Part shown: positions 47,499-59,088 of the stretch, in pieces
Numbering within the stretch: the first letter of the stretch is position 1
Layout of the letters: each line of letters starts with the position of its first letter
From: Gammaproteobacteria bacterium
GTDB taxonomy: Bacteria; Pseudomonadota; Gammaproteobacteria; G965277405
DNA: 64,000 nucleotides
Direction of reading: 5' to 3'
NCBI GenBank assembly: GCA_965277405.1
Contig: OZ255726.1
Coordinates: 1,632,001-1,696,000, forward strand
Position numbers and translations under genes: made by a program
Notes under the pieces: model-generated
Databases searched by the model: none
What the model was told of the DNA's origin: nothing
The model's input: the letters and a program-made list of their open reading frames with translations, nothing else

Positions 47499-48597
47499 AT
47501 GGAAATGGAACGCAATCAAATCAACAATGAAATAAAAAATCGTTTGGCGCAAGTACACGCGCTGCGGAGGTATCTTTGACTACGATGCCAAACTGCAACG
47601 CTTGACGGAACTCAAAGATTTATTGAGCAATCAATCCTTGTGGCAGGACCGACAACGCGCACAACAACTCAGCAAAGAGGAAGCACACATTGATCGAGTC
47701 ATTACCCCGATCAATCAAGCCTTGCAACAGCTCGACGCGCTCGACGAGTTGTTGGAAATGGCGTGCATGGAAAATGACGATGCAGTTATTGCAGATGTTG
47801 TTGCGGATTTGCAAGGCGTGGGCAAAACTATTGATGATTTAGAGTTTCAGCGGATGTTCAATAATCCACATGACCCAGCCAATGCGTATATCGACATCCA
47901 AGCAGGATCTGGGGGCACCGAAGCGCAGGATTGGGCAAATATGTTGTTGCGGATGTATTTGCGCTGGGCGGAGTCGCATCAGTTTAAAACAGAAATGCTC
48001 GATTATTCACACGGCGATGTAGCTGGCATTAAAAACGCAACAATTTTGGTGAGCGGGTCGTACGCGTTTGGTTGGGCACGCACAGAAACAGGGGTCCATC
48101 GCTTGGTGCGCAAATCACCATTTGATTCAAACAGCAAACGCCATACTTCATTTGCCTCGGTATTTGTCTCACCAGAAATTAACGATGATATTGAAATCGA
48201 TGTCAACCCAGCAGATTTGCGGGTCGATACTTATCGCTCCAGCGGTGCAGGTGGGCAGCATGTCAACACCACAGATTCTGCGGTGCGGATTACCCATCTG
48301 CCAACGGCAACGGTTGTCCAATGCCAAAACCAGCGCTCACAGCATCAAAACCGTGATAAAGCGATGCAGCAGTTGCGCGCCAAGTTGTATGAAATTGAAA
48401 TGCTAAAACAACGCGCGGAGCGCGATGAGGTAGAAGCCAATAAATCTGACATTGGTTGGGGCAGCCAAATTCGTTCATATGTCCTTGATGATGCGCGGAT
48501 TAAAGACTTGCGCACGGGGCATGAAACAGGCAATACTCAAGCGGTATTGAATGGTGATATTGACGCTTTTCTTATTGAAAGTCTGCGGACTTTATAA
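47499..48597 (+). CDS. prfB: Peptide chain release factor 2 with programmed +1 frameshift
   Basis: ORF1 from 47499 ends GGAGG-TAT-CTT-TGA-C; the +1 frame continues with SPF and GGQ motifs. Confidence 0.96.
47566..47580 (+). promoter_or_regulatory. prfB +1 ribosomal frameshift site
   Basis: Internal SD GGAGG followed by TAT CTT TGA C. Confidence 0.95.
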
Positions 48598-49244: not shown

Positions 49245-49446
49245 CCGATGAAGTGAGTTTGTTAGCAGATGCTGTTGTTGATGCCCGCACCATCACGAAC
49301 ACTTCTTTATGGTAATTGTGCGCGTGGAGTTTTGCAGCGATAGCGTTTGAAATTTGCAGTATTCATCGATATAATTCCTAGCAAACAGGTGTTGTTCTTG
49401 CTGGTAACATGTATTATTCGCAATATTTTACATTTAAATTGGAGTT

Positions 49447-50037
49447 ATGGGCATTATGTATACTAATAGAATTGCTTCACAGGTATTGATTGTCGGTAGT
49501 GTTTTGCTGGCGGGCTGTTCATCTTCCCCTACCGTTCCCACGCAGGAAAAATGCGTGTTTCCAGACGCTGCGGGTGGTGATGCTCCACTGTGGGTGTGTC
49601 ATGAGCGTCTTGATGGTGGCCCAAAATTTCAAGCAATGGGAAGTTCACGACTAGGAGGAAACCGTTCACTAGCTGAGTCAAAAGCAACGGCTGTTGCACA
49701 GGTTAAATTGGCGCGGCGGATGAACAGCTCCATAAAAAACATGCTTGAAGGCTATGCCGCTGAAGTGGTATCAACCGATGGCGATGTTATCAACACAGAT
49801 AGCTTTGAAGAAACAACTCGGATTACAGTGAAGCAAAATATTATCGGCAGCCACATTATTCGAAAAGTGGTTAGTTCTAGCGGAGACGAACTGTATGTAC
49901 TGATGGTAATGAATCCTGCTGATGTTAAGGAGGTGGTAGGCGAAGTTATCGATGTACTGGAACAGGAAAATAATCTGTTAAAGGGTAAGATGAACCTAGG
50001 CAATGCAATGAAACGCCTCGATGAGAAGGTGCAATAG
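49447..50037 (+). CDS. LPP20-like lipoprotein
   Basis: Lipobox LLAGC, CxFPD...APLWVC, helical AESKATAVAQVKLA, LYVLM strand. Confidence 0.75.
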   Translation: MGIMYTNRIASQVLIVGSVLLAGCSSSPTVPTQEKCVFPDAAGGDAPLWVCHERLDGGPKFQAMGSSRLGGNRSLAESKATAVAQVKLARRMNSSIKNMLEGYAAEVVSTDGDVINTDSFEETTRITVKQNIIGSHIIRKVVSSSGDELYVLMVMNPADVKEVVGEVIDVLEQENNLLKGKMNLGNAMKRLDEKVQ

Positions 50038-50041
50038 GTCG

Positions 50042-50109
50042 TTAGTGCCTGCATAGTCGTTAGCGTCCGCATAGTTAGCGCCCACATATATTATATTAGC
50101 GTCCACATA
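50042..50109. repeat. Four imperfect TTAGCGTCC(G/A)CATA repeats
   Basis: Units at about 50042, 50060, 50075 and 50096. Confidence 0.7.
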
Positions 50110-50120
50110 TAAATGCCGCC

Positions 50121-50498
50121 ATGCGCCATTGTTTGTTGTTTGCTTTGGTATTGCTTCTTCCATCTTGCACACTATTTCAACCGCATCCTCCTGAATGGAT
50201 GAACAATCCACCAGCAAACAGCGGAGTTGGCATTGCTGGACCGAACATAGGCGGCATTCCCGCACAAATCAGCTTAGCAACCCACCGAGCCAGTATTGAT
50301 TATGCAAAAAGGAAAGGGTATCTGGTTGAATCATCAACTCTGGTTCGCGCTGGTGCTGATGGGAAGATTGAATGGGAAGAGCTAGAGGAGAATAGCAACG
50401 GGACTATGGAGGCAACTAAAGTGCAGGTAGAAGTGCGAGAACGTTGGTACGATGGGCATACCAACTACTATGTTCTGGTTACGGCAGTGGATGAGTGA
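50121..50498 (+). CDS. Small lipoprotein (LPP20-like)
   Basis: Lipobox LLPSC, PEWMNNPP, GVGIA, QISLATHRA, YYVLV. Confidence 0.7.
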   Translation: MRHCLLFALVLLLPSCTLFQPHPPEWMNNPPANSGVGIAGPNIGGIPAQISLATHRASIDYAKRKGYLVESSTLVRAGADGKIEWEELEENSNGTMEATKVQVEVRERWYDGHTNYYVLVTAVDE

Positions 50499-50636
50499 TG
50501 GGGTTTTAGTTGGTATTCTAACCATTCATCCAATATTGATTGTTTGTAGGTTTGATTCAGCATTCTGGCAACGTGTGTTGCAACGAAAAATGCAAGTGAT
50601 GAGTGATATTCACCAGTTTAAACGCCCAGCTAATAA

Positions 50637-50651
50637 GGAATCGCTGATTAA
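50637..50651. repeat. Solo MITE-like end
   Basis: TAA|GGAATCGCTGATTAA, the exact reverse complement of the variant end at 29108-29122. Confidence 0.6.
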
Positions 50652-50825
50652 GCAGATGATTGGCATATGTCGTGTAAACCACTGCCAACGTTGTCAAACT
50701 ATTGAAATATACTGAATGTTTTCGTACACTTGTCTGTGATTTTTGCTGTCTTTGCTCTAGCATAGTCTCTATAGCGTAACAATTGTGCAGATTGATCAAT
50801 ACAACGCCACAGGAGGGGGACGTTC

Positions 50826-53702
50826 ATGCGAAACACCACACTCAGTACAACAGTAACTAGATTTGCCGTGTTCGTCAGTTGTATCCTGTTAGCCGTAGGC
50901 TGCGCTACACAGCAGGCTACACAGCACAAGCCACAGCAGGCTAGTCAACAGCACCAGCTACAGCAGGCAAAAAAACAGCACCAGCTACAGCAAGCTCAAC
51001 AGCACCAGCCCAACGCAGAGTTGCGGAACGCCACCAGAGTGGCGTTCAAGGAGCGAATCCGTGTTATTAAGCTGTTGCGCACCATTAATGGGCATAGTAA
51101 CCATGTATACTCAGTCGCCTTCAGTCCAGATGGTAAGACCCTCGCCAGCGGATCTCGCGATGGTATTCTCAAACTCTGGAATCCGCGCAGCGGTAAGTTG
51201 TTGCGCTCCATGAATGGGCATAATAGTGACATGGTAACGTCAGTCGCCTTTAGTCCAGATGGTCAGACCTTCGCCAGCGGATCTGGGGATAATACTATCA
51301 AACTCTGGAATCCGCGCAGCGGCAAGCTGTTGCGCACCATTAATGGGCATAGTGACCATGTAGACTCAGTCGCCTTCAGTCCAGATGGTAAGACCCTCGC
51401 CAGCGGATCTCGCGATGGTATTCTCAAACTCTGGAATCCGCGCAGCGGTAAGTTGTTGCGCTCCATTAATGGGCATAATAGTTACATGGTAACGTCAGTC
51501 GCCTTTAGTCCAGATGGTAAGACCCTCGCCAGCGGATCTCGCGATGGTATTCTCAAACTCTGGAATACGCGCAGCGGCAAGTTATTGCGCACCCTGAATG
51601 GGCATAGTGACCATCTATACTCAGTCGCCTTCAGTCCAGATGGTAAGACCCTCGCCAGCGGATCTCGCGATGGTATTCTCAAACTCTGGAATCCGCGCAG
51701 CGGTAAGTTGTTGCGCACCATGAATGGGCATAATAGTCACATGGTAACGTCAATCGCCTTTAGTCCAGATGGTAAGACCCTCGCCAGCGGATCTGGGGAT
51801 AATACTATCAAACTCTGGAATCCGCGCAGCGGTAAGTTGTTGGGCACCACTAAAGTGCAGAGTAACGATGTATTTTCAGTCGCCTTCAGTCCAGCTGGAA
51901 CCCTCGCCAGCGGATCTACTGATAATACTATCAAACTCTGGCAATTACCACCGAGGCTAGATGCCAATGACTTGAATAATGACTGGAATAAGTTTGTCGT
52001 CAGTTGGAATCGTGGCGACGCAGGGCTAATAGAATTGTACCAGCTACAACGCAAATACCCAGAGGATGCCGTCATAGGCGATGCATACGTCAAAGCGAGT
52101 GTCGCTAGCCCCTACGAAAGTGGCCGAGTTGCTGTTTATTTGCACCGGCGGCAGCTTGACAGCACTAGCTGGCGGACAACTACCGCCTTTATCCAACAAC
52201 TGGCTTCTGACTGGCTCAACCTTAAGGAAATAATCAAACCAGCGAAAATCATAATGCCTACGTTACCGCCAGCTGTAGAGCTGACACAGGAAAATTGGGA
52301 AGGGGATAGTGAATTCGAAACTCGAGTTGCTCAGCTGAACAAGGCGCGTCAAGCGCGGATAAACCAACTTCAAGCAGACTACAGACACAAGGTCGAAGTG
52401 CGCAACAGCAAAGTTAGCAAGCTTGAACGCCTACAACAGCAACGCCATAATCAACTAGCAAGCTATGTACAAGGCATACTTGATTATAGCCTTGAAACGC
52501 AGCCGCCAGCACTAGACAAAGTAATAATCAACCAACAAACACTTGATCTTTATGCTGATCTGGTGTTCAAAGGAACCCTTGTTGGTCGCTATAAACTGGC
52601 GCAGGCGCCACTGAAGCTGCGCAAACAGGCTATGACTAACAGCAAAAGTGTGAAAGTTCTACCAAATATTGAGTTAAGCGACACCAATGATTTTCGTGTA
52701 ACTTCAATCACTATCTTGCATGATGATCAAAGATGGCTAGCGCAGGCAAGCGAGCAGCAGCTACAACACACGAATACCCCTTTGGTTGCTACCATCGGCA
52801 ACGCCGGCGAAACGCGTGAACTGAGTAGTATCTCCCTACTGCAAAAGCAAAACCCCAACCTAGTCGATGTCAACTCAGTGGGGACGGTTCAGTACAAAGA
52901 CGGCACCACAGCACTCACCCGCTATCAAGACGATCTCACTCCGCTGGTGCAACAATTAGCCCAAGCACCAATAGACCAAAGCAAATGGCTGTTCGTCATC
53001 GGTGCAGAACGCTATCAGGAGACAGATAACATCCTTTTTGCCAGAAGAAGTGCCGAGAACTTTGCCCTCGCCGCCAAAAAATCACTTGGCATCGACGCTG
53101 GTCACACCATCACCCTCTACGACGAGCAGGCAACCAGTGGACAGATCAAAACCAAGCTCAAAAAGCTGCTGCGTGATGGCATTAGTTCAGGTGACAGCAT
53201 TATCATTTACTACAATGGTCACGGCTTGCCGGTCAGAGAACAGGACGATACCCCCTATATGCTGCCGACCGATATGATTCCCGACTTTGTCAGCGATGAG
53301 CCTTTTTTTAAACTTGAAAATATGTATGCTTTACTCGCTAAATCGAAAGCAGGCAACGCAATAGTGATAATGGACAGTTGCTTTACTGGCGGCGCGGACG
53401 GCAGGTCAGTCATCAAAGGTGTGGCAGCAGCGAGGCTATCACCAAAAAAACTTTTGATAGACAAGAGCAAACTCATCGTTATGACAGCAGGGACAGACAA
53501 GCAATACTCCACCGCCTTCAAAGACAAAGGCTACCGACTTTTTAGCTACTACCTGATTAAAAGGCTGGTAGCAAACAAACCGCAAACGGTTGAAGATTGG
53601 TTTGAATCGGTACAAAGTCAGGTCAAAACAACTTCGCGCCAAATAGGAGGCTCGCTCAGCTATCAGGATCCGCAGTTGCTGGGGAGCAATCAGCAGCTAT
53701 AG
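50826..53702 (+). CDS. Lipoprotein with 7 WD40 repeats, coiled coil and C-terminal caspase-like (peptidase C14) domain
   Basis: AGGAGG RBS, lipobox LAVGC, seven (GH)...SVAFSP...LASGS...KLW repeats, FVIGAERY, YYNGHG (His), IMDSCFTG (Cys), QDPQL. Confidence 0.9.
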   Translation: MRNTTLSTTVTRFAVFVSCILLAVGCATQQATQHKPQQASQQHQLQQAKKQHQLQQAQQHQPNAELRNATRVAFKERIRVIKLLRTINGHSNHVYSVAFSPDGKTLASGSRDGILKLWNPRSGKLLRSMNGHNSDMVTSVAFSPDGQTFASGSGDNTIKLWNPRSGKLLRTINGHSDHVDSVAFSPDGKTLASGSRDGILKLWNPRSGKLLRSINGHNSYMVTSVAFSPDGKTLASGSRDGILKLWNTRSGKLLRTLNGHSDHLYSVAFSPDGKTLASGSRDGILKLWNPRSGKLLRTMNGHNSHMVTSIAFSPDGKTLASGSGDNTIKLWNPRSGKLLGTTKVQSNDVFSVAFSPAGTLASGSTDNTIKLWQLPPRLDANDLNNDWNKFVVSWNRGDAGLIELYQLQRKYPEDAVIGDAYVKASVASPYESGRVAVYLHRRQLDSTSWRTTTAFIQQLASDWLNLKEIIKPAKIIMPTLPPAVELTQENWEGDSEFETRVAQLNKARQARINQLQADYRHKVEVRNSKVSKLERLQQQRHNQLASYVQGILDYSLETQPPALDKVIINQQTLDLYADLVFKGTLVGRYKLAQAPLKLRKQAMTNSKSVKVLPNIELSDTNDFRVTSITILHDDQRWLAQASEQQLQHTNTPLVATIGNAGETRELSSISLLQKQNPNLVDVNSVGTVQYKDGTTALTRYQDDLTPLVQQLAQAPIDQSKWLFVIGAERYQETDNILFARRSAENFALAAKKSLGIDAGHTITLYDEQATSGQIKTKLKKLLRDGISSGDSIIIYYNGHGLPVREQDDTPYMLPTDMIPDFVSDEPFFKLENMYALLAKSKAGNAIVIMDSCFTGGADGRSVIKGVAAARLSPKKLLIDKSKLIVMTAGTDKQYSTAFKDKGYRLFSYYLIKRLVANKPQTVEDWFESVQSQVKTTSRQIGGSLSYQDPQLLGSNQQL
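51075..51940 (+). repeat. Intragenic WD40 tandem array with alternating 126/129-bp units
   Basis: Unit starts at 51075, 51201, 51330, 51456, 51585, 51711, 51840; near-identical at the DNA level. Confidence 0.95.
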
Positions 53703-53719
53703 CACAAGCCAGACAAAGC

Positions 53720-54772
53720 ATGCAATCTCCTTGGCAGTTTGTCTGTATGGCAATACTCCTAAGTTGTTGCGCCACAAACACACCAACCCTAGAATATCCG
53801 CAGTGGTACAAAAGATTACCGCAGCAGCAAGGGATAGTGATTGGCTATGGCTATGGTTTGACAAAACAAGAAGCTCGGTACAAGTCTTTTGATCATCTTC
53901 GTAACCAGCTGGGCGTCAGCGTACATTCCACTCAGGTTTTTTCTGAGTTTGAACGAATTACTAACATTGGCATTGATGAGTTCAGCGATACAAGGGCAGC
54001 AGAAGTAATTATTAATGCGGATATACACGGAGCCGTCCTGCGTAAGGCTGAGCAACGAGGCAGTTATTATTTCATCGCTTACAGCACTGATATCAGGTCG
54101 GTTCGGTCGCGTATTCTCGAAACCCCCAGTCTTTGTCAAGGAGCAAAGGCTGTCGGAATACACAGGCAGCAAAGCCTAACAGGTTTCAAGCCATTCGCAC
54201 CAATCACCCGAGATTTACAAGCAGATGGTTGCCCAGACAACTGGACTCTACAACGGCTGAATAATTCATGGTCTATTGAATTGGCGGGACACAGTTTCCA
54301 GCTACCGAATGAGCAACTATGGCGTCTTACCCTTGCTATAGACAAGACAGATGAACTTACACTGCTTGACGATAAACATCATGAACAGGAGAGTTTTCGT
54401 GCTGGTGAGCGTTATTTCGTTTCCTATAACAAACCAGTTAATAGCAACATGTACCTTTTTCTCGTTAACGAACTTGGTCAGGTTAATCTACTTGATCAAT
54501 CCGAGGCCAAACAGCTACGCCGTGAGCGCTGGTTGTACCCCAATCCCGATAAATACGCTGGTGGTTTGATCGCAGCACCGAACTCAAGTGGATCAATACA
54601 TAATGACTTAATAGTGGCAGCCGCTTGTCCTGAGACTATCCACTATCATTTTTCCTCCCTGACAAGTGCAAAACCTGACCTTGCCGATGAAAGACTGTAT
54701 GTTCTGGACCGATTGATCAAGGAAGTTGAGCATTGTTTGGTACATATGAGAAGCCTCAGGATAGTATTATAA
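53720..54772 (+). CDS. Lipoprotein with LPP20-like N-terminus and DUF4384-like C-terminal domain
   Basis: Lipobox LLSC, YPQWY, GYGYG, EAR; FRAGERYFVSY, MYLFLVNELGQVNLL, YPN. Confidence 0.65.
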   Translation: MQSPWQFVCMAILLSCCATNTPTLEYPQWYKRLPQQQGIVIGYGYGLTKQEARYKSFDHLRNQLGVSVHSTQVFSEFERITNIGIDEFSDTRAAEVIINADIHGAVLRKAEQRGSYYFIAYSTDIRSVRSRILETPSLCQGAKAVGIHRQQSLTGFKPFAPITRDLQADGCPDNWTLQRLNNSWSIELAGHSFQLPNEQLWRLTLAIDKTDELTLLDDKHHEQESFRAGERYFVSYNKPVNSNMYLFLVNELGQVNLLDQSEAKQLRRERWLYPNPDKYAGGLIAAPNSSGSIHNDLIVAAACPETIHYHFSSLTSAKPDLADERLYVLDRLIKEVEHCLVHMRSLRIVL

Positions 54773-54869
54773 TGTTCAGGTGAAGCACTGAGTGTTGCGG
54801 TCGGATGTTATATGCAGATATGCTATGCTGGTCAACCCTGACCATTAGCCACATAACCATGAGAAAAAT

Positions 54870-56333
54870 ATGCGCATTTACCTAGCACCTGTATTTGTGA
54901 CAATCCTTTGGATTACTTCTTCTTCAATAACAACAACTTACGCTGCTAGCGATATTGAGCAGCGTAAGCTGCAGATGCAGCAGAGCATAAATAAGCAAAA
55001 AAAAATCTTTGCAGCTTACAAGCGCAATAGTAAAAACGAGTTTGAAGCCTATCGTGCCCAGCAACAGGAAACTTTAAAAAAAGCAATTAAAGAAAACTGG
55101 CGCCAATTTCAAATTTACAAAGCAGACTTCAGCTTGCTTGGCAACAAGCCGCAAAACCAACCAGCCTACGGCAACCAGGTTAAACATCAACTAGCAGCCA
55201 AATCACCAAATCTCAAAACATCAATTGTAAAACCTAGGGATGGTCATCTTTCACAGCAAAAAACAGCAAACACGCAGCCACTTAATCTGTATGGAATGAC
55301 GTTATCTATGCCTGTGGTCACGCAGCCAGTCATGTCAGCAGGAGCAGACAAACAGGCAATTACTGACTATCTACAAGTAAACCCAGATTACGAAAAAAAG
55401 TTAGTTGTGTTTGCCCGTGATACTGCAGAGCGACTCCACCTTGACGATTGGGGTACATACTTGCTGATGCGTGAAATAGCACGGCAGCTCTACCCAGATA
55501 GCTGGCAAACCAGACGCCTTGCCCAATGGAAATGGATGAATCAGCTTGGCTACGATCTGCGCATAGCCGAAACAAGCAACGAATTACGTTTACTACTACC
55601 AGTCACCCAGACAATATATGGTCACTCATACATATTTATAGAAGGCAATAAATACTATCTTGATACCCCAGCTGGTAGCGACTTGCACACCTATCCACAA
55701 CAATTTGATAAACTTGCAGCCATAGAGAATATCAACCCAACACAAGTGCGGTGGTCTGATGACAAGCAGAATATTCATGTTCGCCAGCTTGATTATTCCA
55801 ACGATGGCGAACACTACCAAATTACGCTTAAGTTCGATATACGTACACTGCGGATGATGCAGGATTATCCGCAAATGATTTTTTCTCGATATTTTAAAAC
55901 ACCTCTTTCGCCAAAACTTGAACAATCACTCAAAGATCAGCTCATGCCTGTGCTTGCAGGCAAGAGCAAATATCAGCAGGCAAGTCTGCTGCTTAAGTTG
56001 GTACAGAAATCTCTCGCCTACCAGACTGATCAACAACAGTTTGGCAAGGAAAACTACCTATTTGCCGAAGAATCTATAGGGTTTCCATATGCCGACTGTG
56101 AAGACAGAGCTATTCTGTATGCTTGGCTGGTGCATGAGCTGCTCGACCTTCCCTATCTGGTACTGCTATACCCTAACCACCTGACTACGGCCATAGCTCT
56201 GAACGGAACAGGTGACACAATTCATTATGGCAATACCATCTATCTGATAGCTGACCCAACATACATAGGGGCACCAATCGGTAAAGCCATGCATCCGCAG
56301 ATAGAGCCAAAGATTATTTATGCTTCACAATAG
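54870..56333 (+). CDS. Secreted protein with C-terminal transglutaminase-like Cys-His-Asp domain
   Basis: Signal peptide (TTTYA/AS), coiled coil, YQTD, ADCEDRAIL, PNHLTTAI, IADPT. Confidence 0.7.
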   Translation: MRIYLAPVFVTILWITSSSITTTYAASDIEQRKLQMQQSINKQKKIFAAYKRNSKNEFEAYRAQQQETLKKAIKENWRQFQIYKADFSLLGNKPQNQPAYGNQVKHQLAAKSPNLKTSIVKPRDGHLSQQKTANTQPLNLYGMTLSMPVVTQPVMSAGADKQAITDYLQVNPDYEKKLVVFARDTAERLHLDDWGTYLLMREIARQLYPDSWQTRRLAQWKWMNQLGYDLRIAETSNELRLLLPVTQTIYGHSYIFIEGNKYYLDTPAGSDLHTYPQQFDKLAAIENINPTQVRWSDDKQNIHVRQLDYSNDGEHYQITLKFDIRTLRMMQDYPQMIFSRYFKTPLSPKLEQSLKDQLMPVLAGKSKYQQASLLLKLVQKSLAYQTDQQQFGKENYLFAEESIGFPYADCEDRAILYAWLVHELLDLPYLVLLYPNHLTTAIALNGTGDTIHYGNTIYLIADPTYIGAPIGKAMHPQIEPKIIYASQ

Positions 56334-56364
56334 AGCGTTGTTTTGGTGTTATACATGCGCTGTT

Positions 56365-56614
56365 GCGGTACTTGCTGTGTTGCAACCTTTGGTGTATATG
56401 CTCCGGCATGCGCCTGCGGAATGCGCCTTGCAATCATCAGCAATTGCAGCAATTGCAGCAAACCGTTGTATATTCAACAGAATGACGGGAAAAAACGCTG
56501 CGATAACGTCGTTGCAGCACTTGATAATACCACCAGTATTATCAAGTGTTGCGCTTCAGTTATCATCAGCGTGTTTGCTTAGTCTCGCCCATTATTGAGT
56601 TAATCAGAGCTTCC
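56365..56614 (-). mobile_element. Rearranged MITE copy (internal inversion, one end missing)
   Basis: 56365-56447 in + orientation joined at GCAATTGC to a - orientation left half ending TTAATCAGAGCTTCC|TTAA. Confidence 0.85.
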
Positions 56615-56627
56615 TTAATAAGTTATA

Positions 56628-57716
56628 ATGACCCCATCTGCTCTATACCAACAAAAAATTGACACAGGCGAAATCTGTGCGGATTGCATACAACAGCAGG
56701 CTTTGGTTGAACTTGATGGCTTGCATCTGGCGGTTATTAGCTTTTTTGAACGCAGCCGTTCATTGCTGTCGTGGAAAAAGCCCAAGCAACCGCACGGGTT
56801 ATATCTGTGGGGTGAGGTTGGTCGTGGCAAAACATTTTTGCTGGATTTGCTTTACGAATCATTGCCACATTGCCGCTGTCAGCGGATTCATTTTGCCCGT
56901 TTCATGCAATGGCTACATGGGCAATTACAATTAAGAGTTGGCAGTAAAAATCCACTGCAGCGGATTGCCGCTGCATATTGCAGGCAATATGCGGTGCTGT
57001 GCTTTGATGAGCTGTACGTCAATGATATTGGTGATGCGATGTTGTTGGGTGAGTTTTTTGCGGCGATGTATCGCCACGGGATGGTGTTCATTAGCACCTC
57101 AAATAGCCACCCAGATGATTTGTATAAAGAAGGGTTACAGCGCAGTCGGTTTCTGCCTGCTATTGCCAGCATTCATCAGCACAATACCGTCTATCATTTA
57201 GGCGGGTCCCATGATTATCGATTGCGCATGCTAACAGAAAATGCTTTATTTTATATCAACAGCGATGCTGCGCAAGCACAGCAGCATATGCGGCTGTTGT
57301 TCACCCGCTTATCTGGCAACCAACAATTATATCAAGAAGATACTGTTGAGCTCACTGCGCGTCAAGTTGCCATAGTTGTCGCGTCAGATGAGGTGTTATG
57401 GATGACGTTTGCACAAATGTGTGAAAGTGCACGGAGCAACTTTGATTATATTGAAATCTCAACAAGATTCAAAATTGTCATGCTTAGTCATGTCCCTAAA
57501 ATTACCAATGACGATGCTGCTCGGCGCTTTGTTGGCTTGATTGATGAACTGTATGCAAGCCACACGGTGTTGGTGTTGCATAGTTATGCGCAGCTTGACC
57601 AACTGTATAATCAAAAAAAATTAGCATTTGCTTTTCAAAGAACAATCAGCAGGCTGATTGAAATGCAATCTGATGCATACGTTGCACTGTGTGCCATCGA
57701 GGCACGGTTGCAGTAG
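56628..57716 (+). CDS. zapE: Cell division ATPase ZapE (AFG1 family)
   Basis: GLYLWGEVGRGKT, LCFDE, TSN, LYKEGLQRSRFLP, RTISRLIEMQS. Confidence 0.93.
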   Translation: MTPSALYQQKIDTGEICADCIQQQALVELDGLHLAVISFFERSRSLLSWKKPKQPHGLYLWGEVGRGKTFLLDLLYESLPHCRCQRIHFARFMQWLHGQLQLRVGSKNPLQRIAAAYCRQYAVLCFDELYVNDIGDAMLLGEFFAAMYRHGMVFISTSNSHPDDLYKEGLQRSRFLPAIASIHQHNTVYHLGGSHDYRLRMLTENALFYINSDAAQAQQHMRLLFTRLSGNQQLYQEDTVELTARQVAIVVASDEVLWMTFAQMCESARSNFDYIEISTRFKIVMLSHVPKITNDDAARRFVGLIDELYASHTVLVLHSYAQLDQLYNQKKLAFAFQRTISRLIEMQSDAYVALCAIEARLQ

Positions 57717-57725
57717 CTTTGGTGA

Positions 57726-58430
57726 TTATAGTTGCCAGTCGATTGGTTGGATGGCGTGATTCTGTAAATATGTGTTGGTTGCTGAAAAAGGCCTGCTACC
57801 AAAAAAACCATTGTGTGCCGAAAAGGGTGATGGATGTGCGCTGGCAATAATGTGATTGTGGGTAGGGTCGATTCCTGCTGCCTTGCGTTGCGCGTATTTG
57901 CCCCAGAGGATGTATACAATGTTGTGGTGATGTTGTTGCAAACGCGCGATGATTTGATCAGTAATCCATTCCCAACCTTGCCCCGCGTGTGATGCGGCAG
58001 CGCCAGCGCGGACAGTCAGCACGCTGTTTAATAGCAACACTCCTTGTTGTGCCCATGCTGTTAAATCACCTTTTCCTGCGTTTTGAATAGATATATCCGC
58101 ATACATTTCAGTATGGATATTGCGCAATGATGGCGGAATCTGTATACCATTTGCCACAGAAAATGCTAGCCCCATCGCCTGTCCTGGGCCATGGTATGGG
58201 TCTTGTCCGAGCATAACAACTTTCACAGTATCGACTGGCGTGCACTGCAGTGCTGTATAGATGAGATGGCGAGGTGGGTATACGGTATGTTGCAGTTGTT
58301 GCTGTTGTAAAAAAGTTCCAAGTTGCAGCGCCTGTGGCTGGATTAGGCAGTCAGCTAGCAGTGACTGCCACGATGATTCAAGCACGGCTGTGATTGTTTC
58401 GATTGTCGAATTTGATGGGCAATTTTCCAT
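57726..58430 (-). CDS. ung: Uracil-DNA glycosylase
   Basis: GQDPYH, PPSLRNI, GVLLLN, HPSPFS. Confidence 0.96.
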   Translation of the reverse strand: MENCPSNSTIETITAVLESSWQSLLADCLIQPQALQLGTFLQQQQLQHTVYPPRHLIYTALQCTPVDTVKVVMLGQDPYHGPGQAMGLAFSVANGIQIPPSLRNIHTEMYADISIQNAGKGDLTAWAQQGVLLLNSVLTVRAGAAASHAGQGWEWITDQIIARLQQHHHNIVYILWGKYAQRKAAGIDPTHNHIIASAHPSPFSAHNGFFGSRPFSATNTYLQNHAIQPIDWQL

Positions 58431-58491
58431 GATGGCATTGGTAATGGCAGTAGTTTTTCGTACAATGGATTTTTTTATTCCGCATAAGTAT

Positions 58492-59088
58492 ATGGAAAAA
58501 ATAATATATGGGCTGGTAATTACATTACTTGCTGGCTGTGGAGCATCAACGCCAACATTAGACGAAGTGCGTGCTGTATCTGAGTGCTATTATCCAGATA
58601 CTGTAGATGTTGAAGGGCCTGCTTGGGTGTGTGATGGTCCAGTTGATGGTGTTGCGCTCAAAGCAGTTGGTGTTGCTGAGCCAACGCAGGCAGGTTTTGC
58701 ATTTCAACGCAGAATTGCACAAAATAATGCACAAATTGAGATAGCTGTGCGGGTTCGCAGCAGAGTGCGCGACATCATTCGGCAATATACTGAGCAAATC
58801 GGCAATGTGCCTGAAGAGCAAACGAATGCCGTGATTACAGTTACCACACAAACAATTACTGATGTGACGCTGCAGCAAGTAGAACTGTTCGCAAGTATCA
58901 AATCCCCGAATAATTATTTCTATGTGTTGATGGGGATTACCGATGATAATTTTAATGCGTTTTTAGATACCGCATTACGCTCTAGCATACAACAGAATGC
59001 TGATGACTGGGGAGCATTTCTAGATTTACACAATCAAGATCAGGAGTTACTTGCAAAAGAACTTATTACAAAAGGAATAGGTTCATAA
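58492..59088 (+). CDS. LPP20-like lipoprotein (paralogue of 49447..50037)
   Basis: Lipobox LLAGC, CYYPD...GPAWVC, FYVLMG. Confidence 0.75.
   Translation: MEKIIYGLVITLLAGCGASTPTLDEVRAVSECYYPDTVDVEGPAWVCDGPVDGVALKAVGVAEPTQAGFAFQRRIAQNNAQIEIAVRVRSRVRDIIRQYTEQIGNVPEEQTNAVITVTTQTITDVTLQQVELFASIKSPNNYFYVLMGITDDNFNAFLDTALRSSIQQNADDWGAFLDLHNQDQELLAKELITKGIGS

Follow-up and report, generated by a model that had tools for sequence, protein, structure and literature searches.

A cluster of exported caspase-like and lipoprotein genes, assembled from two recurrent gene cassettes, in a Gammaproteobacteria genome

Five co-oriented genes in a 64,000 bp window of a Gammaproteobacteria bacterium genome (GCA_965277405.1, contig OZ255726.1, positions 1,632,001 to 1,696,000; the window is this whole stretch of DNA) encode proteins with predicted export signals, including a caspase-type protease with a fast-changing putative sensor domain and a second predicted thiol enzyme. 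The cluster (49447-56333) joins two conserved cassettes that recur in many bacteria, and no paper describing it was found in our literature searches. One cassette pairs the caspase, which has a swappable N-terminal repeat domain (WD40 here), with a lipoprotein with LPP20-type and DUF4384-type domains, and the other combines LPP20-type lipoproteins with a secreted family of roughly 500 residues. The 7.2 kb unit is duplicated in this 2.17 Mb genome, with 95.3% identity between the copies of the exact five-gene block. The original prediction of such a cluster is confirmed as an observation, and all five open reading frames are present on the forward strand, separated by gaps of 83, 327, 17 and 97 bp. 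The features are as follows.

49265-49446, forward: 5' edge of the duplicated unit, with a promoter-like site at 49347-49375 (TTGAAA-17-TATAAT)
49447-50037, forward: g1, LPP20-type lipoprotein, 196 aa, lipobox LLAGC, two further Cys (C36, C51)
50121-50498, forward: g2, short (125 aa) probable lipoprotein of the LPP20 superfamily, atypical lipobox LLPSC
50826-53702, forward: g3, 958 aa, in four parts
50826-51071, forward: g3 residues 1-82, lipoprotein signal (Cys26) and a Gln-rich, low-complexity tether
51072-51950, forward: g3 residues 83-375, seven-bladed WD40 propeller with a near-invariant scaffold and a few hypervariable positions
51951-52925, forward: g3 residues 376-700, conserved middle region with a helix-rich segment, no known family
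52926-53702, forward: g3 residues 701-958, caspase-like (C14) domain; His799 codon 53220-53222, Cys852 codon 53379-53381
53720-54772, forward: g4, 350 aa, lipoprotein with an N-terminal LPP20-type domain and a C-terminal DUF4384-type beta-sandwich
54870-56333, forward: g5, Sec-exported 487-aa protein with an N-terminal long helix, a Pro-rich linker, a middle alpha/beta domain and a C-terminal transglutaminase/LapG-like domain (about 55887-56330); Cys410 56097-56099, His437 56178-56180, Asp462 56253-56255
56355-56630, unstranded: short dispersed repeat marking the 3' edge of the duplicated unit, not part of the system
58492-59088, forward: g6, a further LPP20 lipoprotein (LLAGC) 2.1 kb downstream

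Export signals were assigned with a pattern test rather than with SignalP. The products of g1 (LLAGC, Cys24), g3 (LAVGC, Cys26) and g4 (ILLSC, Cys16) fit a lipobox resembling PROSITE PS51257, whereas g2 (LLPSC) does not because it has Pro at position -2, and its assignment as a lipoprotein is therefore weaker; g5 has a hydrophobic N-terminus without a lipobox Cys and is of the Sec type. None of the five has a TM-like segment beyond residue 40. None of the lipoproteins has Asp after the anchor Cys, which by the Escherichia coli Lol rule suggests location in the outer membrane. Mature g3 retains only the lipid-anchor Cys and the catalytic Cys, and g5 contains a single Cys in the whole protein. 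Signals were recognized by eye in all 12 g3 homologues inspected (eight lipobox, four Sec type), and a crude N-terminus classifier finds a hydrophobic N-terminus in 59 of 66 g3-family, 53 of 68 g4-family and 109 of 115 g5-family proteins.

The g3 product contains seven WD40 repeats (Pfam E 1.3e-93) followed by a C-terminal caspase-like domain, although the best NCBIfam match, caspase_w_EACC1, scores 54.5 bits, below the cut-off of 140. The YYNGHG and DSCF motifs align with the catalytic His and Cys motifs of Arabidopsis metacaspase-4 (PDB 6w8s, E 0.021), and H799 and C852 are invariant in 13 of 13 family members, such that the His-Cys dyad is inferred from alignment and conservation. In tblastn searches the domain matches Pfam-positive C14 ORFs with E values of 1e-13 to 2e-28. 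Residues 380-958 are conserved over 80-90% of their length across the g3 family, although the middle region, with its putative coiled coil, has no Pfam match and no usable Atlas hit. The Pfam models themselves do not recognize g1, g2, g4, g5 or the g3 caspase domain, and the LPP20, DUF4384, C14 and transglutaminase-like labels hold only through the family of each protein; in the g3 family PF00656 is listed for at least 35 of 71 members.

The relationships of the LPP20-type proteins are similarly indirect. For g1, tblastn matches are found in 16 of 80 loci centred on the g5 family (E down to 8e-19), and the representative of that ORF cluster matches Pfam LPP20 at 1.5e-14; a BLASTP comparison of g1 with g6 gives 8e-11. 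For g2, tblastn matches 134-137-aa ORFs beside g5 homologues in three of 80 loci (best 2.5e-11), a 140-aa member of the same BLAST cluster matches Pfam LPP20 at 7.4e-8, and a jackhmmer search from g2 gathers the LPP20-type ORFs, although profile drift is possible. The g4 family has 71 representatives, and of 40 members examined LPP20 is found in 37 and DUF4384 in 17. An AF2 model of g4 (pLDDT 85.3) gives weak fold matches to a Campylobacter jejuni flagellar-motor periplasmic scaffold chain (9hmf_A, prob 0.99, E 0.011) and to Ig-like folds.

No Pfam model recognizes the g5 family (DUF553 is matched in three of 20 members, best 0.012, which is not significant), and there is no sequence-level match to any PDB chain. 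However, C410 is conserved in at least 90% of 20 aligned family members, and H437 and D462 in all 20. LapG, a periplasmic cysteine protease, is the top fold match (prob 1.00, TM 0.51 on target, E 2.5e-3), followed by other transglutaminase-fold enzymes, although the structural matches for both g4 and g5 all have E values above 0.001.

The clustering is not chance, as the same gene pairs recur in many loci of unrelated phyla. A g4-family gene lies in 55 of 80 caspase-centred metagenome loci, is adjacent in 43 and is immediately downstream on the same strand in 33, and no other neighbour family lies in more than six of these loci. LPP20-type genes lie in 45 of 80 g5-centred loci, with 29 of the hits within 1 kb and none beyond 6 kb, although 32 of the 80 loci hold none of the partners. 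The two cassettes rarely travel together: just one of the 80 caspase-centred loci holds a g5-family gene, and 13 of the 80 g5-centred loci hold a caspase, 10 of which also hold LPP20-type genes. A joint function of all five genes rests mainly on their co-duplication and on mixed loci in Bacteroidota, KSB1 and Calditrichaceae.

Between the two g3 copies in this genome and three metagenome alleles the caspase domain is 98-99% identical (254-255 of 258 residues) but the WD40 domain only 62-74%, with the variation focused in seven of 40 blade columns, and the two genome copies also differ by indels in residues 1-82. Across the g3 family the N-terminal domain is swapped among WD40, ankyrin, Sel1 and Lcl_C. 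However, a crude dN/dS test on the blades gave no sign of positive selection (0.81 in the variable columns against 0.72 in the scaffold), and the WD40 divergence could reflect repeat recombination rather than selection for new ligands.

The original interpretation, that the whole module is periplasmic or surface-located and may comprise a ligand-gated protease plus a cross-linking or deamidating enzyme on an LPP20 scaffold, is partly supported. The domain composition, the export signals, the conserved His/Cys and Cys/His/Asp residues and the co-occurrence in unrelated genomes are all as proposed, and the condition that the cluster should not match a described operon was examined, with none found in our literature searches and no match to PADLOC. 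However, the cluster is not conserved as a single five-gene system, and the resemblance of g5 to LapG makes hydrolysis at least as likely as cross-linking. Ligand gating gains indirect support from the fast-diverging WD40 domain, and the proposed roles in host interaction or envelope defence remain hypothetical.

A plausible, if tentative, scenario is that the cluster is a composite envelope module in which g3 is held on the periplasmic face of the outer membrane by a lipid anchor and its long Gln-rich tether, with the WD40 propeller as the specificity module and g4 as a constant partner that docks on, restrains or is cut by the protease, while two LPP20-domain lipoproteins (g1 and g2) sit with a secreted Cys-His-Asp hydrolase of LapG/transglutaminase fold (g5). 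In this view the LPP20 domains would build a lipoprotein platform under the outer membrane, a ligand bound by the variable face of the propeller would switch on the caspase or recruit substrate to it, and the caspase and the LapG-like enzyme would then cut envelope proteins at the interface of the outer membrane and peptidoglycan. The fold that FlgP shares with Lpp20 builds rings under the outer membrane (PMC12222027). The gene set, export signals, conserved catalytic residues, conserved pairings, duplication and sensor hypervariability are demonstrated by the sequence comparisons, whereas outer-membrane location, complex formation, ligand gating, the substrates and the physiological role, together with catalytic activity, binding and expression, are inferred.

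Housekeeping envelope and cell-wall remodelling, in the manner of NlpI-Prc or LbcA-CtpA, is less likely but is the strongest alternative; the repeat domain would then be a substrate-recruiting adaptor rather than a sensor of foreign ligands, and the two enzymes would trim peptidoglycan enzymes, or lipoprotein-peptidoglycan links, on an LPP20 platform. MltC-like lytic transglycosylases (SLT + MltC_N) lie inside both cassette types, in three g5-centred loci (numbered L055, L059 and L072) and in a six-locus cluster of the caspase-centred set of which only the representative (L115) was scanned. A class A PBP and a GT2 glycosyltransferase lie just upstream of the g5 homologue in 6-7 Cloacimonadota loci, an LpoB-family gene lies two genes downstream in locus L010, and a pseudomurein endoisopeptidase (PeiP) is among the g5 fold matches. 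However, these neighbours are in a small minority of loci and partly within single phyla, the g3 family is rare (three of 400 genomes of the class, including this one), the block is duplicated with its second copy among transposase remnants, and the repeat domain diverges far faster than the rest, traits that are unusual for housekeeping genes.

It is also possible, though doubtful, that two mechanistically independent cassettes are merely adjacent, the caspase and DUF4384 pair having been inserted between the LPP20 pair and g5 of an older cassette. Proteobacterial g5-centred loci typically read LPP20 (about 196 aa), LPP20 (about 135 aa), then g5, sometimes with a different gene in the slot before g5 (FGE-sulfatase in L030, MltC-like in L072), and the near absence of g5-family genes from caspase-centred loci agrees with this; but the five genes were duplicated as one block with sharp edges, and the LPP20 domains in both cassettes would let them share one platform. 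A host- or prey-directed surface or vesicle-borne effector set, in which the WD40 domain targets a eukaryotic protein and the proteases act outside the bacterium, is unlikely. It is favoured by the eukaryote-type repeats of the g3 family, by Helicobacter pylori Lpp20, which is found in released vesicles and linked to host effects (PMC12029599, PMC7225971), and by the small genome rich in IS remnants and short repeats, a pattern typical of host-restricted bacteria; however, both cassettes are common in sediment, groundwater and digester MAGs of Gallionellaceae, Cloacimonadota, Calditrichaceae and Bacteroidales, and no secretion-system gene was seen in the block. Least likely is a surface-attachment machine, in which the clan CD protease acts as a sortase-like transpeptidase, as PorU does in type IX secretion, and the transglutaminase-fold enzyme cross-links LPP20 lipoproteins to each other or to peptidoglycan. 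Transglutaminases (TG2, FXIIIa, TglA) are among the g5 fold matches and PEGA, CARDB and CarboxypepD_reg surface-type domains are common in neighbouring genes of Bacteroidota loci, but the probabilities for TG2 and FXIIIa are just 0.14-0.33, the hydrolase LapG is the best match, and no conserved C-terminal sorting signal or substrate family was identified.

Components of the cluster resemble several described systems. Bacterial orthocaspases, including those of cyanobacteria, share the His-Cys dyad in the HG and DSC motifs and have WD40 and DUF4384 among their listed accessory domains (PMC7475262), but neither a signal peptide nor the periplasm is mentioned (0 occurrences of either term) in the passages of that review that were consulted, whereas here the protease is a predicted lipoprotein, DUF4384 sits on a separate LPP20-anchored partner, and PF00656 does not reach g3 itself. 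The EACC1-caspase two-gene conflict system (Kaur et al., eLife 2020, PMC7159879) likewise places a constant small partner gene next to a caspase fused to a highly variable domain, but its partner is a 5' single-TM EACC1 protein rather than a downstream exported LPP20+DUF4384 lipoprotein, and here the caspase itself has an export signal. LapG and other bacterial transglutaminase-like cysteine proteinases (PDB 4u65, 4fgo; Pseudomonas aeruginosa LapG, PMC4694147; Caulobacter HvyA, PMC4241560) share with g5 Sec export, a Cys-His-Asp triad, the predicted fold and, by analogy, action on envelope or surface components, but g5 is about 300 residues longer, with an N-terminal helix, a Pro-rich linker and an extra domain, and its partners are LPP20 lipoproteins, with no LapD- or LapA-type partner seen in the block. 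The LPP20/FlgP family (H. pylori Lpp20 and the C. jejuni FlgP basal-disk rings; PMC12222027) consists of small outer-membrane lipoproteins, but there is no flagellar context here, and g1, g2 and g4 are too divergent for the Pfam model. The Craspase substrate Csx30 of type III-E CRISPR (bioRxiv 10.1101/2022.08.17.504292) carries a DUF4384-type domain and works with, and is cut by, a caspase-like protease, but that system is cytoplasmic and RNA-guided with a CHAT-type protease, and cleavage of g4 would be by analogy alone. NlpI-Prc and LbcA-CtpA combine an outer-membrane-anchored repeat-lipoprotein adaptor with a periplasmic protease controlling cell-wall hydrolases, but the protease is of class S41 rather than C14, here adaptor and protease would be one polypeptide, and a link to cell-wall hydrolases is suggested only by lytic transglycosylase genes in some related loci.

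Among the features at the edges of the duplication, the promoter-like site upstream of g1 matches 11 of 12 consensus positions, but the region holds no more such sites than shuffled sequences (13 against 13.5). At the other end the duplication terminates within the first 95 bases of the dispersed repeat, which gives 449 HSPs in 323 bins of the genome with about 200 copies of each half. Gene g6 is not part of the duplicated unit, but its product passes the Pfam LPP20 cut-off (8.1e-7) and matches the LPP20 genes beside g5 homologues better than g1 does (E down to 1.8e-35 against 8e-19), and it is possibly the ancestral LPP20 partner of g5.

The window region 49447-56333 contains five open reading frames, which we refer to as follows (those separating gaps are 83, 327, 17 and 97 bp in order):

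first gene, + strand, g1: 196 aa, LPP20-type lipoprotein
second gene, + strand, g2: 125 aa, short probable lipoprotein of the LPP20 superfamily
third gene, + strand, g3: 958 aa, WD40 repeats and a caspase-like domain
fourth gene, + strand, g4: 350 aa, lipoprotein with LPP20-type and DUF4384-type regions
fifth gene, + strand, g5: 487 aa, predicted Sec-exported protein with a Cys-His-Asp triad
58492-59088, + strand, g6: a further LPP20 lipoprotein lying outside the five-gene block

The five-gene cluster of the original prediction is a real, uncharacterised envelope module, and the interpretation offered with it is supported in part. A PROSITE-like pattern test, which is not equivalent to a SignalP prediction, identifies lipoboxes in g1 (LLAGC), g3 (LAVGC) and g4 (ILLSC), whereas the corresponding sequence in g2 (LLPSC) departs from the pattern at position -2, and g5 has a hydrophobic N-terminus lacking a lipobox. 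No later TM-like segment is found in any of the five. None of the lipoproteins has Asp following the anchor Cys, which by the E. coli Lol rule points to the outer membrane. Mature g3 retains only the anchor Cys and the putative catalytic Cys, and g5 contains a single Cys.

Assignment of g3 to the C14 peptidases (caspases, metacaspases and orthocaspases) rests on its motifs and its relatives rather than on a direct profile match. Pfam identifies seven WD40 repeats but no family within the C-terminal 578 residues (381-958) at E values up to 10, and a search of the whole genome with PF00656 returned no matches. However, g3 matches Pfam-positive C14 ORFs by tblastn with E values of 1e-13 to 2e-28, and a search with residues 380-958 finds 71 proteins sharing the middle region and caspase domain at 30-45% identity, at least 35 of which carry a precomputed PF00656 hit. 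The N-terminal domains of these relatives are swapped, and are WD40, ankyrin, Sel1, Lcl_C or absent. The YYNGHG and DSCF motifs of g3 correspond to the (S/N)GHG and D(S/A)C motifs containing the catalytic His and Cys and align with those of Arabidopsis metacaspase-4 (PDB 6w8s), and H799 and C852 are invariant in 13 of 13 aligned members; a caspase-hemoglobinase fold with these residues in catalytic geometry is inferred from sequence alone. The best NCBIfam match is to the EACC1-associated type of caspase (NF047832), but the score of 54.5 bits is far below the curated cut-off of 140, and none of the neighbouring proteins matched an NCBIfam family at E values up to 0.01. A search of the Atlas with the g3 middle region gave no usable hit.

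The LPP20 and DUF4384 assignments are similarly indirect. Pfam does not recognize g1, g2, g4 or g5, and DUF4384 (PF14326) searched against the whole genome gave no match. Only g6 matches LPP20 (PF02169) directly, with 29.8-31.2 bits against a cut-off of 25.9, and the listed ORF at 58261-59088 is probably over-extended at its 5' end. g1 matches both g6, by BLASTP, and, by tblastn, ORFs whose representative is Pfam-positive for LPP20, although g6 resembles the LPP20 partners of g5 homologues more closely than g1 does. g2 reaches the same superfamily only by iterative (jackhmmer) search. g4 has 71 representative relatives, and of 40 that were aligned 37 hit LPP20 and 17 hit DUF4384, the best at 3.2e-8. 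The AF2 model of g4 (pLDDT 85.3) has an alpha/beta N-terminal domain and a C-terminal beta-sandwich, with weak fold matches (all with E above 0.001) that include a C. jejuni flagellar-motor periplasmic scaffold chain. Elsewhere in the genome, an additional ORF of about 340 aa at 1053836-1054876 (- strand), outside of both copies of the block, has a weak LPP20-type N-terminal domain (18.4 bits, below the cut-off).

g5 belongs to a family of at least 257 proteins without Pfam domains, in which C410 is conserved in at least 90% of 20 aligned members, and H437 and D462 in all 20; 109 of 115 family members have a hydrophobic N-terminus. It thus has the export signal and conserved triad of the bacterial transglutaminase-like cysteine proteinases of the LapG type, but the similarity is at the level of predicted fold only. 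The AF2 model (pLDDT 82.6) has a long N-terminal helix, a disordered Pro-rich linker, a middle domain and a C-terminal domain, and its best PDB matches are LapG (prob 1.00, E 2.5e-3) followed by other transglutaminase-fold enzymes. Searches of PDB sequences with the g5 family profile and with the C-terminal 118 residues gave no usable match, and Pfam searches of 20 members gave only marginal hits to DUF553 (3 of 20) and Transglut_core2 (1 of 20). The Atlas clusters are annotated as hypothetical proteins, one of which carries DUF553, a transglutaminase-like domain, on 23% of its members. No LapD-type regulator or LapA-type adhesin is encoded in the block. The g5 homologues in Bacteroidota (loci L008, L011, L040 and others) are 856-905 aa long, about 400 residues longer than g5, and the one representative scanned (L040, 884 aa) gave no significant Pfam match.

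Comparison with other genomes shows that the block is composed of two conserved pairings. A scan of one genome per species identified 575 confirmed g5 loci, of which 80 were retained, spanning Cloacimonadota, Bacteroidota, KSB1, Calditrichaceae, Spirochaetales, Campylobacterota, Deferribacteraceae and several proteobacterial orders. Profile searches of their ORFs found LPP20-type genes in 45 of the 80 loci, a caspase in 13, any partner in 48, and none of the partners in 32. Of the LPP20 hits, 29 lie within 1 kb and none beyond 6 kb, although more flanking sequence is available at that distance. Proteobacterial loci typically have the order LPP20 (about 196 aa), LPP20 (about 135 aa), then g5, and cluster representatives in Bacteroidota, KSB1 and Calditrichaceae loci also hit LPP20+DUF4384, DUF4384, FecR, PEGA, CARDB and FGE-sulfatase. 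DsbA and cytochrome c maturation genes lie next to the LPP20-g5 pair in 4-6 gammaproteobacterial loci, and we regard these as lineage synteny and not as part of the system.

From the g3 side, a metagenome scan found 407 loci, of which 80 were retained. A g4-family gene is present in 55 of these, adjacent in 43, and immediately downstream on the same strand in 33, whereas no other neighbouring family lies in more than six loci and only one of the 80 contains a g5-family gene; because many of the contigs are short these counts are lower bounds. In a cluster of six metagenome loci represented by L126, a CHAT-domain protein (L126:1019-2740), a second caspase-like protease, lies directly next to the g3-family caspase. 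The g3 family is rare, being found in 3 of 400 genomes sampled from the class (including that of the window itself) and in 3 of 41 nearest relatives, one of these three being an unpublished genome on which nothing else here rests. Culturable carriers of a g3 homologue include Shewanella, Aliivibrio and Ferrimonas strains. The block in the window thus looks like a caspase and DUF4384 pair sitting inside an LPP20/LPP20/g5 cassette.

The block at 49265-56449 recurs at genome positions 533775-540920 with 95.3% identity. The second copy lies among short ORFs (flanks 530930-531253 and 541895-543968) that look, by eye from their N-terminal sequences, like transposase fragments. The 3' edge of the duplication falls inside a dispersed repeat of roughly 270 bp (window 56355-56630) made of two sub-elements (about 1-95 and 100-265), each with about 200 copies in the 2.17-Mb genome (449 HSPs in 323 bins). 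The products of the two copies differ by two amino acids in g4, one in g5, three in g2 and ten in g1, but by 70 in g3, plus indels, nearly all of them before residue 445. Relative to its paralogue and to three metagenome alleles (P0193-P0195), g3 is identical at 254-255 of 258 residues of the caspase domain, 79-94% identical in the middle region, and 62-74% identical in the WD40 domain. All of the blades keep the scaffold SVAFSPDGKTLASGS.D.TIKLWN.RSGKLLRT, and differ around the GH dipeptide and after the SGS.D motif, positions that by analogy with WD40 propellers would lie on the top face. Seven of 40 columns carry four or more residues among 12 blades. A crude pooled comparison, in which three blades are one residue out of register and the columns were chosen by their variability, gave dN 1.16 and dS 1.43 for the variable columns and 0.096 and 0.133 for the scaffold, such that the ratios (0.81 and 0.72) are alike. 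Listed sequencing runs comprised three of DNA type, from one study, and none of RNA.

The analysis itself establishes the export signals on all five proteins, the conserved catalytic residues, the two conserved pairings, the co-duplicated block and the fast-diverging putative sensor domain; the mechanism, including catalysis, binding and location, is inferred. In the scenario we favor, though tentatively, the LPP20 domains would form a lipoprotein platform under the outer membrane, where FlgP, which shares its fold with Lpp20, builds rings (PMC12222027). g4 would dock on g3 or be cut by it, DUF4384 being described as often fused to protease domains and forming the C-terminal domain of some Csx30 proteins, which are cut by a caspase-like protease (bioRxiv 10.1101/2022.08.17.504292). 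The WD40 propeller would select a ligand or a substrate, and g5 would be a LapG-like hydrolase acting on an envelope target. A complex prediction for g3 (460-958) with g4 (22-350), made with alignments of only 13 and 40 rows, scored 0.12, under the mark of 0.32, which is not evidence either way.

The main alternative is a role in cell wall remodelling, which rests on a class A PBP next to g5 homologues in Cloacimonadota, an LpoB-family gene in locus L010, and MltC-like lytic transglycosylases (SLT + MltC_N) that recur inside both the LPP20/g5 cassette (L055:2934-4148, L059:7190-8404, L072:8738-9904) and the caspase/DUF4384 cassette (L115:13142-14365, the only member scanned of a cluster of six caspase-centred loci). 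We considered whether g5 and the MltC-like proteins share an N-terminal module, but only the L059 ORF matched the N-terminus of the g5 profile, at E 1.3e-4, those of L055 and L072 did not, and no member of A1, the g5-family set scanned with Pfam, hit Mltc_N, and the idea was dropped. A more speculative reading, which we consider unlikely but not excluded, is that of an extracytoplasmic counterpart of NLR-type surveillance, in which a caspase tethered to the outer membrane carries a hypervariable, repeat-based sensor (WD40 here, and ankyrin, Sel1 or Lcl_C in relatives) recognizing a foreign molecule arriving at the envelope from a phage, predator, competitor or host. The caspase would then fire in the periplasm, with the DUF4384/LPP20 protein as its constant docking or substrate partner and the LapG-like enzyme carrying out envelope remodelling or cell suicide, and the two diverged copies in one small genome would be two receptor specificities. 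None of the five proteins matched a model of the known anti-phage defence systems in PADLOC-DB 2.0 at E values up to 0.01.

The closest described systems are the orthocaspases with accessory domains (PMC7475262), the EACC1-caspase pair (PMC7159879), the LapG/BTLCP enzymes, and the LPP20/FlgP lipoproteins. g3 fails the Pfam and NCBIfam thresholds but keeps the defining dyad, and g5 is not a sequence member of any curated family. Full-text literature searches found no paper on this gene set and none on orthocaspases as outer membrane lipoproteins, and among papers mentioning DUF4384 no title or abstract concerns this cluster. What this window adds is the link to the g5 family, the duplication within the genome, and the measured divergence of the putative sensor. 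In PMC7475262 and PMC7159879, bacterial caspase homologues are discussed in the context of programmed cell death and cytoplasmic conflict systems, and few are known with an assigned molecular role. The module described here places, by its predicted export, a caspase with intact catalytic residues in the envelope, and provides it with a constant LPP20+DUF4384 partner that can be tested as adaptor, inhibitor or substrate. It also defines a large secreted Cys-His-Asp family, present in many phyla, that no Pfam model recognizes. The contrast between a nearly frozen protease domain and a fast-changing WD40 domain in near-identical strains makes the sensor hypothesis directly testable; if the module senses foreign molecules it would extend receptor-protease logic to the periplasm, and if it trims cell wall enzymes it would be a new class of envelope proteolysis.

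Among other features of the window, we note that prfB (47499-48597) carries the canonical programmed +1 frameshift site CTTTGAC at 47574, following a 26-codon leader ORF.
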